Both the position numbers and the translations under genes were made by a program. Below are positions 1-9,860 of a DNA stretch of 64,000 nt, piece by piece. This stretch comes from Vicugna vicugna (lineage: Eukaryota). The stretch is from positions 1 to 64,000 of the forward strand of contig MU058228.1 of NCBI GenBank assembly GCA_013265495.1. Direction: 5' to 3'. The notes beneath the pieces were generated by a model. The model ran no database searches, was not told where the DNA came from, and worked only from the letters and a program-made list of their open reading frames with translations. Each line of letters opens with the position of its first letter. The first letter of the stretch is position 1.

Positions 1-2387
1 ATGCTTAGGAACACACCCAGGATTGGAAATCGGTCAGCTTAGTGCGGCAGAAGGACAGGGGAACACAGATCAAGGAGCCAGTGAGGGCACAAATGGAGAG
101 AAGAGGGCTCAGGAGGGAGCCTGGATAACCTGAAAGAAAGTAGCTTATCAAGGGACAGGAGTTCAGTGAGGTCAAAGCACAGGTATAGAGGGATGATGAC
201 AAAGGAGAGCTGGAAGAAAAGAAAGTTGTAGCGTAAAAATGACACTAGCACTTACTATGTCAGAGCTCTCAGTCCCAGTGATTAAAAAACAAAAACCAGT
301 CCAGGATGCGGCTGAGTGGAGCAGGTCACTGGAGTCTGGGGTGGGGAGTGAGTACGCTGTGCTGAGGCTGTCCCTGTGGGTGACGGGACCTCCCAGGGCG
401 GTGCTGGCTGGCGGAGAGGACGTGTGTCAACCAGGAGCCAGATCCCGGGGAAATGCTACTGCAGGACTTGAGGAGGATGTGGAGGGAGACGGCTGCAGGG
501 AGACAGCACAGGTTTCAGTGGAAGGGGGTGGAGGGGACCGAGCTGCAGTGTCAATACGGATTCCAGGCACAAGGGTCACAAGGTGGGAGAAACAGTTGCC
601 ACTCAGAAGGGCAGCCCAAGAAGCTAGCTTGTCAGGGCAGGAGGGAGCAGTGGTGCCCGTGACAATGGCTGAGTGGGCCAGGACTCAGCAGGGGAAGGAG
701 CAGGTTGGGGGATACCCGGGAGTTCAAGGAAGGGAGAGAAAGCAGAGAGAAAGGTCAGGAGAGAAGGCAGGGTGAAGGGGTGGAGGGGGCAGAGAAGAGC
801 TGCTGTCCTGATTGGTGTTGTGGATGACACAGGACAGGTGAGGGCGGGCCACCTGGGCACTGGCTCTGAGTCCCAAGTCCTTCCCAAGTGGGTTTCAGCA
901 CAGCTGCTTCCCAGCTGTGGTCTCTCCTAGGATGCACTCAGAGTGGGAGGGGGCAGAGAAGGCAGGGAGGAGATGTGCCTCTGTGGATGGCACACTGACA
1001 AGCTATTGGTCCCCCTACAGGTCTGCAGACTAAGGCCAGAACCCCAGCCAGGTGAGTGAGTGTCCTAGGGGTAGGGGGGTGAAGGTCACTGGTTTGGGAA
1101 ACAGGACCTTTCTCTCCAGTCCAGATCCTCACACGTCCCCTAACAGGTCAGGCTCTTCATTTCTTGAGGCTCCATCTCTTAAAAAATCTAGGACAGTTGA
1201 CCAGCCCTTTGTCTTATTCTTTCCCAGAATGACTCCCTTTGTCTTTCTCTGGCACCCTCTTTCCTCCTTTTGTCCCCATTTCTAAACTTTTCGCGCCATT
1301 CATCCTGGTTTCTCTCCACCTTGAATATCCTCCTTCTCAAACTCACATATCTTTTCCATGTTTTTTCCTCTTTCTTGCTCTCCCTCTAATCTGTCCTTTC
1401 CCCTGTGACGTGGGGAAGGCCACCAGGATCCTCTGCCTCCAGCTCCTCTGCCCTCTGTCCTTTCTCAGAGCAGCCTGGTCCCCTCCCCTCTGGCCCCAGC
1501 TCCTCTTCCTTTCCTGACCTCTCTCCCTCCTCACCAACCACCTCTTTCCTTTCTCCATCCTTTCCTTCCATTTCCACACTTTTCCTTCTTGCAGCCCCGC
1601 CCTCTTTCCTCCCTCTCCCGACTCTTGCCAGCTGTCCTCCTCAAACCTCCCCAGGGTGGCATTTCCTCTGGTGTCCAAGGCCTGAGCACCGCCCAGAGGA
1701 CCTGAGAGTAGCTTCCATGTTTTCAGTCTCCAGTTTTAACGGAGGAGCTGCAGCAGAAAGGACAGGAACTCACCATCCTATTTCTCCTCCCTGTGTCCCT
1801 CCAATAAGGCCACTTCTCTAAAACAATCCACATCAGTCAGCGCTCAGGGACAGGGCTACACCGCAAACTGCCCCTCAACCCTGTCCAGGCAGCCTCCTCC
1901 TGAGAGCCTCAAGCCATTGCCCTCATGTTCTCAGTATGTGCAGGCAGGACACAGAGCTCCCTCTTGGACTTTCTCCTCTAGCTCTTGGACCTGACCTGTC
2001 TTCTGTATTAGCCTCCAACCTTAGGAGATGGGATTTTTTGGCCTCCATGAGCCCCTAGACCTCTCCCTACCACCTGAGGGGTCCTACCCAAGCCAGCTGT
2101 GCCCTGGGAGGCTACATGACAGCCATCCTTGTGACCAGAGACCACCAAGAGGGCAGGCCTGTTACCCACAGTGCGGATCTGTTTTGGGTCCTGATCTGTA
2201 GGCAAAGGTCCCTGGTGATGTCCAGGGTCTGGAAATGGCACATACCTACTGATCTTCCTCTTGCCCTGGGTTGGGAATGCTCAGATGTAAGTGCAGCCGA
2301 TCTAGTCCAACAAAGTAGTTGGGTTTTTTTGAGAATCTGAAGAAAACAAGGGACTACAGTAGATTTCACAGAGTATTCCCAGGGAAT

Positions 2388-2690
2388 TTGAAGATAGGGC
2401 AATAAAAGTACCCAAACTGAAATACAAGAGAGAAAGAACAGAGCATGCGAGAGCTGTTCGTCAACATCCAAAGGTCTAACATACTGGTAACTGGAATCCC
2501 AGAAGGAAAAGAGAGAGAAGAATGCAGAGGAAATACTTGAAGAGATAACGGCTAAAAATTTTCCAAAAACAATTTTTAAAATATCAACCCACAGCTCCAA
2601 GAAGTTCAGAAAATTCCAAGAGAACACACACACATGCTAAACACATAATTTTTAAACTAATGACAACAAAAGAGAAAGAGAAAAATCTTC
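2388..2690 (+). mobile_element. LINE-1 ORF1-region fragment abutting and truncating the NXPE exon
   Basis: A-rich L1 ORF1-like sequence (gaagatagg...tctaacatactggtaactggaatcccagaagg...gaaatacttgaagagataacggctaaaaattttcc). Boundaries approximate. Confidence 0.65.
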
Positions 2691-2715
2691 TGTATACACA
2701 CACACACACACATCT

Positions 2716-3531
2716 CACATTTTCTTTATCCATTCACCTGTTAATGAACATTTAGGTTGTTTCCATATCTTGGCTATTGTGGATGATGCTACAATGAACA
2801 TGGGAGTGTAGCTGCCTCTCTGACCTACTGACTTCATTTCGTTTGGATACCCAGAAGTGGGACCAGGATAATATGGTAGCTCTGTTTTTAATTTTTTGTG
2901 GAAACTACACACTGTTTTCTATAATATAATTTACATTCCCACTAATAGTCATACGCAAAGGCTCCCTTTTCTCTACAATCTCACCAACACCTGTTTGTCC
3001 GACAATCCTAACAGGTGTGAAGTGTTGCTTCGTTGTGGTTTTGACTTGCATGTGCCTGATAACTAGTGATCTTGAGCACATTTTCACATGCCTGCTGACC
3101 ATCTGCATATCTTCTTTGAAAAAATGTCTATTCATGTCCTTTACCAATATTTAAATTGGGTTATTTGTTTCTTTGCTATACAAGTTTCTTACATTTTTTA
3201 GATATTAACCAATCATTAGATATATGGTTTGTAAATATTTGCTGCCACTCTGTAGGTTACCTTTTCATTTTGTTGATTATTTCCTCTGCTGTGAAGAACC
3301 TTTTACTTTGAGGTAGTCCCACTTGTTTTTTATTTTGTTGCCTTTGCTTTTGATGTCATATCCAAAAAATCAACCAAGAGCATGTCAAAGAGCTTTTTCC
3401 CTGTTTTCTTCTAGGAGTCTCTGGTTTCAGGTCTTACATTTAAGTCTTTAATCTGTTCCATGTTAACTTTTGTGTATGGTATAATGGTCCAATTTCACTT
3501 TTACATGTGGATATCCAGTTTTCCCAACACT
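2716..3531 (-). mobile_element. LINE-1 ORF2 3' region fragment
   Basis: Minus-strand ORFs KDMNRHFFKEDMQM..RHVKMCSRSLVIRHMQVKTT and TPMFIVASSTIAKIWKQPKCSLTGEWIKKM are typical of the L1 ORF2 C-terminus. Confidence 0.9.
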
Positions 3532-3900
3532 ATGTGGTTATTCATAAAACTGAATATTACACATGTGAAAATGAATGAATTACAGCTACCTACAATAAAT
3601 GAGTAATTCTCAGGATAATAATACTGAGTGAAAAAAGTATAGAAGAATACTTATGATTTCACTTATGTAAAGTGTAAAATATACAAAAACAATCATGCTG
3701 CATAAATGCAAATCTATATGGTAAGACTACAAAAAAATTCAACCAAATGATAAACACTCCTTTCAAGATAGTGGTTTCCTCTGAGGGGCCAGGAGAGAGA
3801 TGGGATTTGAGAAAAACAAAGTAGACTTCAAAGTAATGACAAATATTTTTCTTAAACTGAGTGGTGAGCACACAGGTGTTTGTTGCATTACTGTTCTCTG
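3532..3900 (+). mobile_element. old L1M 3' end fragment
   Basis: aatgaatgaattacagcta...atactgagtgaaaaaag...gatagtggtttcctctgagg pattern of old L1 3' UTRs. Confidence 0.55.
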
Positions 3901-4473
3901 TTACCTTTTATTTTAAAACTTTTCTTGTAACTACTTAATTTTTAACCAAAACGAAAAACTTTTTCAGACTATTCATGGTGCATGAGGAGAAAGAGAAGCC
4001 CACAAAGGAGACTCAAAAGGAGTGGGCAGGGAGGTTAAGTGGGGAACAGAAAGCCAAGGAGCCATGCAAGTTTCAAGAAGGAAGGTCAAGTGTTCCTGGT
4101 GTTCAAATAAAATGAGCACTAAGTGTCCTCTGGATTTGGTGATTACATCAGTGAGCAGCATCGTCCAGAGCCCTTTCAGTGGAGGCGGCAGGGTGGGAGG
4201 CAGACTGAGCAGAGCACTGAATAGAAATTGATGAAGAGGAATCAGCAAGGATATAAAGAAAATGTCTGGTCGGGGTGGGGAGGGACCACCCCTCTTCTGG
4301 AGGTGAGCGTGGATTTTTCTGGTAAGATGGCTTGAAGCAGCAATAGCTGGGACAATGGTCCTTTCTTTTTCCAAGTGCTGCCCCCTTCTGGAAGTGAGGG
4401 GGAATGGTGTGGTGTGATAGCTGCTTTGGGGAATGGTAGGCTTAAAGGATTGAATTTAAGATCCACCTAATTG

Positions 4474-4575
4474 AGGGGGAGGGTATGGCTCAGTGGCAGA
4501 GTTTGTGCTTAGCATGCACAATGCCCTGGGTTAATAAACCTAATTACCTCCTCCCCCAAAACAAATAAACAAAAA
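4474..4575 (+). mobile_element. tRNA-derived camelid-type SINE (Vic-1-like), internally deleted
   Basis: ggggagggtatggctcagtggcagagtttgtgcttagcatgcac...ctgggtt then taaacctaattacctcc and an A-rich tail. Near-perfect TSD aagatccaccta (4458) / aagacccaccta (4574). Confidence 0.85.
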
Positions 4576-4635
4576 GACCCACCTAGTACTGGAGAAGGGC
4601 AACTTTTAGCATCACCAATTCACGCACACACTCAT

Positions 4636-5085
4636 CGTGGCAGATTGCAGCAAGAGAAAAAAAAAAGCCGTAGACTCTTTGCAGCATCTTTTCTCAAAAG
4701 GGAGAGGGTATTTCCTCATCCCCACATCTGGGCTAGCCTTCTGATGTGCTCTGATCAACAGAATTTGGTGTAACGGATATTGTGCAATTTCTGAGCCTAG
4801 ACCTCATGGCCTTGCAGCTTCCAGCTCTAGTGCTGGGAACGCTTCTGCTACCGTGTGAACAAGCCCCAGCTAGCCTATTGGAGACGGACAGACGTGTGGA
4901 CAGAGGCCCCAGTCATCCCACCAATTCCACCTGAGGCACCGGATGCGTGAGAGAGGCCATTCCAGACCGTTCAGCTCCAGCCAAGGCAGTTCAAATGAAT
5001 CAGAAAATTCTAAGAAATAATGTCTGTGGTTTCAAGCCACTAGATTTTGAGGTGGTTTGTTATACAATAAAAGCTAATTGATACA
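4636..5085 (+). mobile_element. MLT1-type (ERVL-MaLR) solo LTR
   Basis: Characteristic end (tttcaagccactagattttgaggtggtttgttatacaataaaagctaattgataca). Candidate 5-bp TSD TCATC on both sides. Confidence 0.75.
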
Positions 5086-8000
5086 TCATCCATTTATTCG
5101 TTCTTTTGACAATTTTTAAAGCATATTCATGACTATCTGGTTATTTTCAGTCATTATCCTTTTGTCTCAGTTTGTGTGTTGCTAGCAAGCTTAGGGCCAA
5201 ATGTACTGTCCAGCTTCAGTGAGTGTCCTGATAAAATTCCCAAATTTCTAGTAAAATTACTTCCTTCTACCTGGTTTCTAATCCCTCTTTTAATCTTTAT
5301 TTTAATTATAGTATGTTGTATTCATATCTCTATGGCAGCCATTTGGAGCCTTTTGTGAAAACAGGCACAGTGAAAGTCATGACTGGTATCCTCCTACCTG
5401 AACTCCAGCTTTCAGCCCCTTACCATGTCTTCATTCTTATTAGACATTTGTTTCTCCAGGAATGTGACCGACAAAGCTCTCCTTTGGTGCCTTTCTCTGG
5501 TCCAGAGCCAGATGGTAGTCAAGAGAAGGAGCAGCTTGGTTGAGTAAATCTGCGAAGGCTTCCGGTAGAAGGTTATATCCATAATTGGGATTAGCCTCTC
5601 CCTAGAGAGTCTGGAAGCCAGCATTCACGTGACATTTACCAGCTCATTTCACTCAACTTCCCCAGTGATCACAAGAGGATGGTTATAGTGCACTGCACCT
5701 GGCACAGAGTAAACACTCAAAAAATATTAGCTCTTTTTAGTATCTAGCCTGTTGTTTTGCCCTTTTTATAGCCTTGTCCCCATGGCCCCCATGCTGCCCT
5801 GGACTCCTGGCCCCCCAAACCCTCTGGCTTCTATCACTGTGATGTGGGGTACTTGCTGTGTCTGGCCACTCCTCCACAGCATCCTGGGCTGCCCGCCTGG
5901 CTATGTGGTCCATATAATGAAGGACTCCATGCTTTAACAGTGGTGGGAGTATCCGTGTAACACTATGACCCGTCAGCGGCTGGGATGGGAGAGGGCAGGA
6001 CACCTGGGGCCTCTTATTGAAAGAGGTGAACAAGGAGTGCTTTGAGAGACACCCCGTAGTTTGCAAAGTGGATGGGATGCTGGAACTTCAGAGGATGGGA
6101 CAGACACCTAAGTCTTGGACAAGGAGTTAGAGCTGGGCCACAGGTAACAGATGCCCAAGCAGATTTTTTTTTAATAGCATGCACTTATTTTGTGGCATTT
6201 GTAGACAAAACACCAAACTCTAGAGCATTTGGAGAAGCATTTTGCATAGAGTTTTTGCTCTCAAAGGGAACAGTGGGGAAAGGATATTTCCAGAAAACTA
6301 AAATGACCAACATCAGGCATTATCTAATGCTAAGTGAATAATACAGAGAACGCATTACCAGAGTTTAAAGTAGGGTTGGAAAAATCAGATGTTTTCTGTA
6401 GGAGATGAGAGAGCCTGGCTGGTTGGGATGGGAAGAAGGATGAGAGGACCTGGGGGGAGAGCAGGATCACAGGCCTGCAGAAGAGGAGGAGGGGGCTAGT
6501 TTGTCTGGAAGGCAGCAGGCAGTCCAGCCCAACTGCAGCGGAGAGTTGTTCTTGGAGAACTGGGCAGGGAAGGTTGGGTTACAGGTGACATGCAGTGAAG
6601 ATCTTTGAGTAGAGGAAACTAATCAAATATGTCAGGTTTTCCTAAAGAGTTTTCACAAGAAAAGAAGCTTGAGAGAAATTTCTGAGAGTAGTCACTCTGG
6701 GCCCGACCTCCTAATGTCTTAAGCACCGTTTTCCCTGTTATCAGCCCTCTCCACACACTGTCCACACTGCCTGTCTCATTTCCACCTGTGTATCCATTCA
6801 CTTTGTAAAGGACTGAAAACACTGTCAAAGCAGCTTAGGCAGGAAGCAGTTGGCTAGCTGGAGAGATTGCTGAGTTAAGCAGCAAATCTGGCTTTTCATC
6901 AGGTCTGTTTCTCTCCAAGTACACTTCTGCCCCCTGCTGTTCAGTCTCATTCTCAGTCCCCACTGGGTGGCCCCAGCAGCAGGTGGCTCTTCCAACAAGG
7001 GGGCAAGATGACCCATCCTCCCATGTCAGTCTTGCAGGAAAGAATGAGACTTTTTCCCCCAGCTCCAGCAAAAACCCTACAATTACCAAGTCTGGACCAG
7101 CTTAGACTGGACCGTACATCCTGGAGACAATCAGTATGGCCAAAGGGGTGTGTTGCTCTGGATGACCAGGCCTGAGTCATGGGCAGAATACCAATGTTCT
7201 AGAAAGTAAATCCAGGCTGGAATTTTGTCTGTACAAGTTCATAGTGCATAGCTCTAAACAACCCATCCCCTCCTCTCGTCCTCCGAACAGCCCTGAAGCC
7301 AGAAGATCTTACATGCCACATATTAGACGGGGTCCCCGAGGGTGGACACTACTCAGGGCATGGTGCTGCACTGGTGGACACAACTGGCCCCTGCACTCCC
7401 TCCACATACAACTGGTCCCACTACACCCAGTGGCCTGGGAACTGGGGTGACGAACCAGGAATCCTCACAACGTGGTGGTGCTGGGCCTGGGCACCCACTT
7501 CACCACCTTCCCTCCGTCCATCTTTGTGCAACGACTAGCTGGGAGCCGGGCCACCATGGCTGCACTGCTGGCCTGGGAGCTGCACACTCTTGTGGTCATC
7601 AAACTGGCCAACACTGGCTACCGTGTACAGCACCTACTGGTTCATCTGCCAGCTAAACCCGCTCCTCTGAGCTGCCTTTGCTGATCTCCATGTGGCCTTT
7701 GTGGAGGCCCACAAAATGACCTTTAGTTTGGCCCTGCCCAAAAGCATCTACTCAGGGAGGCATCGTCCACAAGGTGGACTTTCTCCTTTCCTGCTTCTGC
7801 CCCTCCTTAGCTTTTCTGCTGGTCCTAGGGCTGTGTGGAGGGAGGGCTTGGGCACTGGGACACAGCCCTAGCAGGACTTCTGAGACCAGCAATTTCTCTC
7901 ACCTGGAAAACTGCAACGGCTTCCTATCTAGCCCAGCCCAGTCTATTGTTGCTCCCCTTCTCGACTCAGAACAAGACTGATTACTTTAAAACATAGATGA

Positions 8001-9044: not shown

Positions 9045-9860
9045 TTATTGGTGCACTAGGGGCTCCTCGTCGCCGACCAGGAGTTCAGGCCGGCTGTTCC
9101 CCAGACCCTTTGTCTCTGGCTGCGAGGCTTCTCTGATCACCCTAAAGGGGGCCCCGTGACCAGGAACGATCACGTCGGCAGAGCCTAGGACCCTCTTCCG
9201 GCTATACTCCTGGGTCACCGGGTCTTCGCTCAGCGCCTGCCACGAGTCCTCGTCCCCATCACGTTCAAACACATCGCCCACTATCATTACGGTACCTAGG
9301 GCGGTGCCAGCCACCACCACGCTCACGTCCCGCTGACCACCATGGCCCGGCGTGGCCCACACCTCGAGCCCCGGCCCCAACCGCAGGGGATGCTCTTCAC
9401 GCAGGCCGTGGGGGAGGTAGCGGCCCCCGGGGAGGCAGAAGTCGTGCGAGACCAGCAGAGCCGCCCCGGGAAACAGCCCCAGGTTCCCGATATGGTCCGA
9501 GTGTCCGTGGGTCCCCACCACCAGAGTCACGTCTCCTGGAGCCACGCCCTGCCCCGCCAGGGCCCCCAGGAGCGCCTCCCGTGCCCAGGGGCCCGCGGTG
9601 TCCACGAGAATGGGGCCACGGGCCGCCTCCTCCAGGGCGGTCTTCGCCTCACAGCCCTCGGGCGGGGGCTCCCGGTGGCTGGAGGCCGAGCCCCAGGCCT
9701 GGGGCAGGACAAGGGTCACTGAGCCGTCTGCGCGCACAGCATCGCCGACCCCCTCCGGCTCGGCGTAGCCCTGCAGCAGAACCACCACAGAGTAGGGGTC
9801 GCCGGGCACCAGCAGTGGGGACTCCCCGCGCAGCGGCTCGGTGCGCACCAGACCGCTCAT
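9045..9860 (-). CDS. MBLAC1: Metallo-beta-lactamase domain-containing protein 1, single coding exon, 271 aa
   Basis: MBL motifs [25 protein letters not shown] and VPGHG. N-terminus RTEPL....[18 protein letters not shown] is recognisable as MBLAC1. Confidence 0.96.

Follow-up and report, generated by a model that had tools for sequence, protein, structure and literature searches.

The first 64 kb of contig C1668 (MU058228.1) of Vicugna vicugna, hereinafter the window, contains on its forward strand an unprocessed, intron-containing pseudogene of the NXPE5 type, hereinafter the window copy. The locus cannot make an enzyme. In the reading that we consider likely, the window copy is a dead, unprocessed relic of paralog B, one of two placental NXPE5 paralogs (A and B), situated in an unstable cluster of NXPE5 and PILR genes, at the end nearest MBLAC1, and it was lost through the history proposed below. 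The genome searched was the 2.03-Gb assembly G000. Frameshift-aware profile alignment, with residues numbered as in rhino P0017, resolves four exon relics:

1980–2385, forward strand: large-exon relic with the neurexophilin domain, residues ~66–205, truncated at both ends
5460–5539, forward strand: 80-nt exon relic, residues ~276–302, acceptor AG intact, donor GT mutated to TT
5772–5971, forward strand: KDS-bearing exon relic, residues ~302–372, frameshifts at 5813 and 5871, stop at 5935
7291–7809, forward strand: last-exon relic with the PC-esterase/NXPE4_C domain, residues 373–549, stops at 7324, 7448 and 7668

Specifically, 1982–2385 aligns with residues 66–205 (85/131 identical, profile score 287), 5461–5541 with residues 276–302 (11/27, score 30), 5768–5967 with residues 301–371 (42/66, score 153) and 7290–7806 with residues 373–549 (114/171, score 451). 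The first three scores (287, 30 and 153) compare with control maxima elsewhere in the window of 32 (10 draws), 25 (60 draws) and 35 (40 draws), respectively; the fourth relic was scored without a control. Consistent with the profile alignment, a tblastn search with 11 intact proteins gives three colinear plus-strand matches, at about 2032–2385, 5768–5967 and 7309–7806. Judged by these alignments, the colinear NXPE homology put forward in a preliminary description of this DNA is far above chance.

The stop-free piece 7451–7681 matches Pfam NXPE4_C (PF24536) with an E value of 1.8e-11 (44.5 bits, cut-off 27), while four other relic pieces have no Pfam match. The same piece matches 102 of 195 candidate proteins at 62–84% identity (best E 2e-19), mouse Nxpe5 included; the named matches, all mammalian, are NXPE3-like, Nxpe5, FAM55C, NXPE-domain or hypothetical proteins. 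The Neurexophilin-like domain (PF06312) occupies residues 124–265 of P0017, and by alignment relic 1982–2385 covers it in part. Rhino P0017 is 61–69% identical to the last-exon relic, compared with 31–45% for other NXPE genes of the same genome, and NXPE1 matches the window relic only at E 0.048. On sequence similarity, the relic is nearer to Nxpe5-type proteins than to NXPE3 or NXPE1/2/4. An unnamed European Nucleotide Archive (ENA) protein, P0256, is 83% like window 7487–7624 and pseudogene-like; the changes that it shares are CpG-type, and it was not used as evidence.

In total, the four relics carry 10 stops and 10 frameshifts in the profile alignment, where the preliminary description had counted six stops and several frameshifts. 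Those six stops (TAG 2009, TAG 2056, TAA 5935, TAG 7324, TGA 7448 and TGA 7668) lie at the places given, and the peptides quoted with them are present in the window. The large-exon relic has stops at 2009, 2056, 2199, 2288, 2303 and 2338 and frameshifts near 2030, 2185, 2232 and 2330; the last-exon relic has frameshifts at 7308, 7375, 7622 and 7761. At the catalytic motifs, Ser is kept (codon 5926–5928), Gly is changed to Lys, so that the GDS motif reads KDS, Asp to Lys (7740–7742) and His to Tyr (7749–7751). The relic does not preserve the combination of a GDS serine with a distal D-x-x-H that marks SGNH/GDSL-type sialate O-acetyltransferases such as NXPE1 and CASD1. Intact rows of types A and B have Ser in 32/34 and His in 33/34, the remainder being gaps. 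Each of the AG acceptors at 5459, 5771 and 7290 has its counterpart at an exon start of a paralog on contig C3511 (copy A, below). Three introns are retained at homologous positions, instead of the joined exons of a retrocopy, and the earlier claim that the gene is not a retrocopy stands.

The lesions were compared with sequencing runs over 5400–7900, using four aligned runs (X14, X4, X17 and X15) of the 24 listed. Fourteen of the 24, under three organism labels, contain 98–100% of the sampled words of this interval, and 13 are flagged as possible sources. X14 and X4, with two organism labels, each have a single contig across the interval, with 2 and 1 substitutions, respectively, and no gap; these two runs are near-identical, are flagged as possible sources of the window DNA and are perhaps not independent of the assembly. 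The other two, X17 and X15, depart from the window at 60/1956 and 71/2225 positions (3.1–3.2%), which places their source in a relative, probably an Old World camel. The relative has an indel at 7308 only and shares five of the six frameshifts in the interval with the window. Both of its runs read G at 5540, so the GT donor is retained there, and at stop 5935 it has no change among the substitution rows listed (35 of the 75 rows lie outside them). No spliced joint is seen in any of the four runs over the interval. X15, from an RNA library, covers intron and exon alike, unspliced; contigs cannot show expression, and this coverage is neutral for transcription. Because the interval is indel-free in X14 and X4 and five of six frameshifts are common to the relative, the lesions in 5400–7900 are not assembly errors, which upholds the pseudogene reading of the preliminary description.

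The 5′ end and the missing exon segments

The DNA in front of the large-exon relic, and that directly behind it, is of other origin:

1–1961, forward strand: partial PILRA-type duplicate (intron, one small exon, intron), running off the contig start
1021–1051, forward strand: PILRA-type cytoplasmic exon of 31 nt, AG...GT intact, within a 225-nt identical tract
2386–3480, no strand assigned: repeat DNA abutting the broken 3′ end of the large exon; 2715–3480 is multi-copy in C3511 at 67–68%

Window 1–1961 is identical to C3511:123230–125799 at 1806 of 1913 columns (94.4%), and a genome search found this C3511 PILRA gene as the sole other copy. The match stops at 1961, ~80 nt short of the next acceptor in the parent; homology to NXPE sets in at ~1980, in the middle of an exon (codon ~66). 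The preliminary description had begun the first exon relic at 1809, behind an acceptor at 1808. Because 1–1961 matches PILRA-type gene DNA, the AG at 1808 belongs to a PILRA intron and is not an NXPE acceptor; the other three proposed acceptors hold. As judged from the alignments, the duplicate replaces the NXPE5 promoter, the first exon and the first ~65 codons; with residues 1–65 absent, the N-terminal membrane anchor is missing from the relic. Within the duplicate, tract 842–1066 (225 nt) is identical to C3511 at ~124.05–124.28 kb and its flanks are 83–97% alike, probably reflecting recent gene conversion.

The parent PILRA-type gene extends over C3511 110.6–126.5 kb. Its V-domain (C3511:111018–111404) matches PILRA and PILRB structures in the PDB with E values of ~1e-42 to 4e-44, its membrane exon lies at 120239–120391, and its last exons, with two tyrosine motifs, follow 125883. 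A PILR V-domain was matched once among 14 candidates in the assembly; the activating PILRB partner may be absent or collapsed there.

Several candidate NXPE segments were discarded. C3511:123–126 kb is not a third NXPE5 copy, as it is PILRA by alignment and by the V-domain structure match. The stretch 1809–1980 was ruled out as an NXPE exon start (profile score 17). A tblastn match of 468–638 to residues 186–252 (E 0.004–0.1; score 41 over 25 residues) lies in a PILRA intron and is due to chance. An apparent match of residues 1–68 in 1–1990 (score 31; control maximum 28 in 14 draws) is Pro/Ser-rich low-complexity sequence within the PILRA duplicate. Residues ~206–275, sought as residues 203–276, were not found in 2390–5450 on either strand (scores 26 and 29; controls 29.7 ± 4). 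We take the repeats at 2386–3480 to be old L1 fragments; Pfam gave no confirmation, with none of four pieces of 2387–2719 matching L1.

It is extremely improbable that an intact gene is masked by faults of sequencing or assembly, or that the locus is a functional PILR-NXPE chimera. The window does start at a contig end beside a duplicated segment, the assembly has an artefact-like 1,487-nt tandem repeat in NXPE3, Myotis has an annotated model that fuses NXPE5 to PILR (P0007), and the 1961/1980 junction is seen in the assembly alone. However, this junction joins an intron to the middle of an exon, with a stop 30 nt on; the lesions in 5400–7900 are reproduced in run contigs and mostly common to the relative, with no spliced joint; one third of the near-invariant residues differ; and the catalytic His has been lost. 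For 5400–7900, the artefact reading is refuted.

Two NXPE5 paralogs and the identity of the window copy

Genome searches with rhino P0017 and cattle P0039 found two NXPE5-type loci, the window copy and a second one:

C3511:88260–97771 of assembly G000, forward strand: NXPE5 copy A, between LAMTOR4 and PILRA

These searches give lower bounds and are specific to this assembly, and they found no working NXPE5 in it. Copy A keeps Ser, Asp and His and has no in-frame stop, with frameshifts near 95246, 97456 and 97527, which argues for a younger loss. It is 89–94% identical to, and not the same as, Camelus protein models of its type (P0115 of C. dromedarius, P0120 of C. ferus, and P0117). At the last frameshift of copy A, P0115 and P0120 pass through an identical out-of-frame peptide before regaining the correct frame, so that this frameshift is common to Camelus; P0117 skips the region. 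Copy A is a young pseudogene and a cleaner case of camelid-specific loss than the window copy, and camelids appear to be without a working NXPE5, both copies being lost.

The same genome also holds NXPE3 (C5938) and two NXPE1/2/4-type genes (C6892), all with open matched exons. At ~943.8–946.7 kb of C5938, a 100%-identical tandem repeat of 1,487 nt duplicates one NXPE3 exon and is probably an assembly artefact. An extra partial NXPE1/2/4-type exon lies at C6892:3016834–3017022, just behind one of the two NXPE genes.

Trees (a 79-row quick tree and a 28-row careful tree without a mixture model) separate a clade A with Shimodaira-Hasegawa (SH) support of 99 in the former and support of 100/100 in the latter. 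Clade A comprises pig, ruminants, narwhal, Camelus, copy A, carnivores, some bats, aardvark, armadillo, sloth, rabbit, squirrels, hystricomorphs, tree shrew, and degenerate rhino and mole models. Type B comprises the remaining placental rows, namely rhino, horse, mole, hedgehog, bats, colugo, rabbit, rodents (mouse Nxpe5 included) and xenarthrans. Many species carry both types, which indicates that the A/B duplication is old.

In the best trees the window copy falls outside clade A, nearest to rhino, bat and horse, on a long branch (0.8–0.9) among laurasiatherian B rows (91/90). It is 65.5% identical to rhino B versus 59–60% to pig and cattle A. Its short exon measures 80 nt versus 74 nt in copy A, the B-type length being two codons longer. 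The short-exon spacing is 40 residues in the window copy; among measurable rows (19 rows tried for each type, 12 missed by the pattern) it is 40 in 15/17 and 41 in 2/17 of type B, and 38 in 9/9 of type A. Taken together, the trees and exon lengths suggest that the window copy is probably paralog B.

In exon order, phase and B-type length, the relic agrees with mouse Nxpe5 (P0085–P0087), horse P0020, rhino P0017 and the bat, rabbit and guinea pig B proteins, and it is 53–66% identical to type B proteins over 383 columns. Unlike intact type B genes, it has 20 frame lesions and no promoter, first exon or anchor, and residues ~206–275, His and Asp are lost. Type A, represented by cattle P0039, pig P0061, carnivore P0029 and copy A, belongs to the same cluster and is the probable sister paralog of the window copy. 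DNA identity of the relic to copy A is 73–76% over the exons, with 73% for 1980–2385. Human NXPE1 and mouse Nxpe2 and Nxpe4 have the same two-domain build as NXPE5 and belong to another subfamily, about 31–39% identical.

Several results weigh against this assignment. Approximately unbiased (AU) tests do not reject placement of the window copy in clade A (p 0.11), with artiodactyl A (p 0.07) or with copy A (p 0.10). Its column-wise B/A score is −7.6, on a scale where held-out B rows score +56 to +172, A rows −51 to −186 and two degenerate A rows −20 and −3.5. Several large-exon residues are A-like, and 10 of 13 diagnostic columns are uncovered; of the three covered, two are B and none is A. 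In favour of the reading proposed here, no B-type protein from a named artiodactyl or carnivore is among the matches listed; such absence is weak evidence, as 120 of 225 matches are shown in one listing and at most 15 members per cluster in another.

Some of these results bear on the alternative of an A-derived duplicate, or of an A/B mosaic arising through gene conversion, that died redundant with no distinct function lost, which we consider unlikely. Such an origin would account for the A placements left by the AU tests, for the A-like residues at columns 68, 193, 200 and 281 and for the neutral overall column score. Four-fold divergence between the window copy and copy A is only 27/118 (Jukes-Cantor (JC) distance 0.27), a low value for paralogs older than the placental radiation. 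The cluster is also prone to duplication, as seen in several Rhinolophus gene models, in rat Nxpe5-like duplicates and in conversion tract 842–1066. On the other hand, an A duplicate fits poorly with the B-type exon length, the B residues at columns 290, 302, 307, 313 and 314, the placement among laurasiatherian B rows and the top identity to rhino B. A mosaic whose backbone is B would still fit with the window copy being paralog B.

Linkage of NXPE5 and PILR is widespread. Myotis model P0007 fuses type A to PILR, as indicated by Pfam on the protein, and Nxpe5-like duplicates are described beside Pilr genes in rat (PMC13477028); both observations underlie this view. For the rhino B model and its degenerate A counterpart, the locus tags (HPG69_002845 and _002847) differ by two. 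The type-A models P0116 (Monodon), P0066 (Diceros) and P0048 (Talpa) have out-of-frame stretches, many changes at conserved residues or a low-quality label, which suggests that paralog A was lost independently in narwhal, rhino and, perhaps, mole. The resulting pattern is one of reciprocal loss: perissodactyls retain B; pigs, ruminants and carnivores retain A; camelids, and perhaps narwhal, have neither. No simian NXPE5 is among the matches listed. Both paralogs are unnamed and annotated as "NXPE3-like". A literature search found no description of the loss of the window copy or of the A/B split; loss tables in supplements and subscription journals lay outside that search.

Age and proposed history of the loss

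As a measure of decay, changes were counted over 275 near-invariant columns: the window copy differs at 65 of the 196 residues that it covers, copy A at 23 of 264; among intact orthologues, nine non-mouse rows have changed 1–7 of 196 and mouse 13. At zero-fold sites, the window copy differs at 60/319 (0.19 ± 0.02) and copy A at 21/432 (0.05 ± 0.01), ~12-fold and ~3-fold, respectively, of the ~1.6% per lineage accumulated since the split from the relative. The window copy has decayed for about four times as long as copy A. Because 19% zero-fold change stands against ~1.6% per lineage, its loss is likely to be much older than the camelid crown and is probably shared with other artiodactyls. The preliminary description had called it a lineage-specific loss of a glycan-modifying enzyme gene; the gene loss stands, the decay points to a time well before the camelid crown, and the enzyme label comes from homology to NXPE1/2/4.

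This dating has its own difficulties. It sets CpG-rich coding DNA against a mostly intronic yardstick, which overstates age; CpG decay inflates both ages, and the ranking of the window copy as older than copy A holds. The locus was compared at the DNA level without pig, ruminant or whale DNA, so independent losses keep some weight. The relative's states at stops 7324, 7448 and 7668 are outside the substitution rows listed; the read check covers 5400–7900 of the window and, for copy A, one of its three frameshifts. A search of metagenome contigs for relics of other artiodactyls confirmed 0 of 61 and 0 of 594 pattern matches.

A loss of B confined to camelids (early Tylopoda), with separate losses elsewhere in artiodactyls, is improbable in our view. 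It is favoured by a DNA-level comparison that covered camelid-grade relatives only, by repeated loss in the NXPE5 family (degenerate A models in rhino, mole and narwhal) and by the inflation of the age estimate through CpG decay. Against it, the zero-fold change of 0.19 (Kimura two-parameter (K2P) distance 0.23) amounts to ~12 per-lineage distances and is more than half of the four-fold divergence from copy A, and the matches listed include no type B protein of pig, peccary, ruminants or whales.

In the history that we favour, with the window copy as paralog B, this gene would have been inactivated long ago, probably on the artiodactyl stem, while paralog A was still present. It then decayed neutrally. 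The 3′ third of the large exon was lost at a repeat, which may have caused the break, and the 5′ end to the duplicated PILRA segment, whose 94% identity suggests a later event. Paralog A would then have been lost on the camelid stem, where one frameshift is shared with Camelus. The loss may have come about because the gene was redundant or because selection shifted, in a cluster prone to recombination and shared with PILR receptors.

The locus resembles the unitary pseudogenes of Zhang et al. 2010 (PMC2864566) in being unprocessed and syntenic and in having no functional member of its subfamily left in the assembly. Unlike them, the window copy is one of two paralogs lost in sequence; the earlier label of unitary pseudogene holds for the missing counterpart and fails for a sole copy, given the second NXPE5-type copy on C3511. 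A term search of the main text of that paper returned no mention of Nxpe, Fam55 or BC055004. A decayed gene is an ordinary kind of feature; reciprocal loss of A and B with double loss in camelids is less ordinary.

Predicted function and genomic surroundings

Residues 86–547 of rhino B align with human NXPE1 (PDB 9PJA; E 5e-68), and rhino S358, D526 and H529 align with the NXPE1 catalytic residues S355, D526 and H529. The NXPE4_C match and the conservation of Ser, Asp and His in intact orthologues, as in NXPE1, bear out the SGNH/PC-esterase-like domain proposed earlier. NXPE1 is described as a sialic acid 9-O-acetyltransferase whose activity is abolished by S355A (PMC12216134), and in an Nxpe2/4 double knockout red cells are reported to lose 7/8/9-O-acetyl forms (bioRxiv 10.64898/2026.05.20.726592). 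By analogy, the ancestral gene most likely encoded a membrane-anchored SGNH-fold acetyltransferase, luminal or at the cell surface, that transferred an acetyl moiety from acetyl-CoA through Ser-His(-Asp) to sialic acid, presumably via an acetyl-serine intermediate like that of NXPE1. An esterase role, of the kind raised in PMC12403103, may also apply. A literature search found no activity data for NXPE5 itself. Given the sialic acid O-acetylation by NXPE1/2/4, the A/B loss pattern offers a phylogenetic profile from which the function of NXPE5 could be assigned.

PMC5588038 (2017), bioRxiv 10.1101/800300 (2019) and PMC11813153 (2025) describe the gene responsible for 4-O-acetylating sialic acid as unknown, and the first of these asks whether the absence of the 4-O-acetyl form in some species reflects gene loss. 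By published reports, horse and guinea pig have the modified sugar in abundance, mouse has it in the gut, dog, ferret and duck show traces, and in pig and human it was not detected; monotreme milk is reported to be dominated by it (PMC10293200). Horse, guinea pig, mouse, rat and rabbit, all reported to make the sugar, carry an intact B, as does donkey; echidna and platypus have NXPE5-like genes. Among the matches listed, no B was seen for pig, ruminants, carnivores or simian primates, in which the sugar is absent or trace so far as they have been tested. Because the distribution of B echoes that of 4-O-acetyl sialic acid (Neu4,5Ac2), we tentatively raise the idea, on balance doubtful, that the dead gene is the camelid relic of the vertebrate sialate 4-O-acetyltransferase.

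Several reports run counter to this idea. Rat and rabbit sera are described as negative for 4-O-acetyl sialic acid, mouse colon mucus as negative with a signal in human faecal mucus (PMC13738405), and chicken is listed as positive (PMC11813153), where no bird is among the NXPE5 matches listed. Dog has a trace signal without B, and the comparison involves few species and few independent events. CASD1 may be an alternative for C4. In the available text of papers naming both NXPE and 4-O-acetyl, no link to NXPE5 was seen. PILR receptors are described as reading sialylated O-glycans (PMC13358205). If the idea were true, NXPE5-B and PILR would form a "writer plus reader" cluster, repeatedly duplicated and lost, and camelids, lacking A and B, would be natural double knockouts.

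The gene next to the relic in the window serves as the synteny anchor:

9045–9860, reverse strand: intact MBLAC1 open reading frame of 271 aa (Pfam Lactamase_B, E 9e-10), convergent with the relic

We take the reading frame 9860→9045 to be MBLAC1. The preliminary description had put the relic upstream of it; since MBLAC1 is on the minus strand, the relic lies on its 3′ side, ~1.2 kb away and tail-to-tail. Mouse Nxpe5 presumably adjoins Mblac1 as well. Beyond the relic, translations in the window are those that we take to be CNPY4, TAF6, AP4M1, MCM7, COPS6 and ZNF3.

On C3511, the gene order over 20–130 kb is STAG3(−), GPC2(+), GAL3ST4(+), TRAPPC14(+), LAMTOR4(−), NXPE5-A(+), PILRA(+) ... GIGYF1. 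PILR alone was checked, by its structure match; STAG3, GPC2, GAL3ST4, TRAPPC14 and LAMTOR4 are the names that we presume for its neighbours. Relative to what we take to be the human order, the LAMTOR4-STAG3 block is inverted, with NXPE5 and PILR copies at the breakpoints. Between the exon relics of the window copy, a short multi-copy repeat at ~5695–5740, in the intron before exon 5772, matches many unrelated contigs, and a short interspersed element (SINE) fragment at ~4476–4572, presumably of camelid type, has two matching places in C3511.

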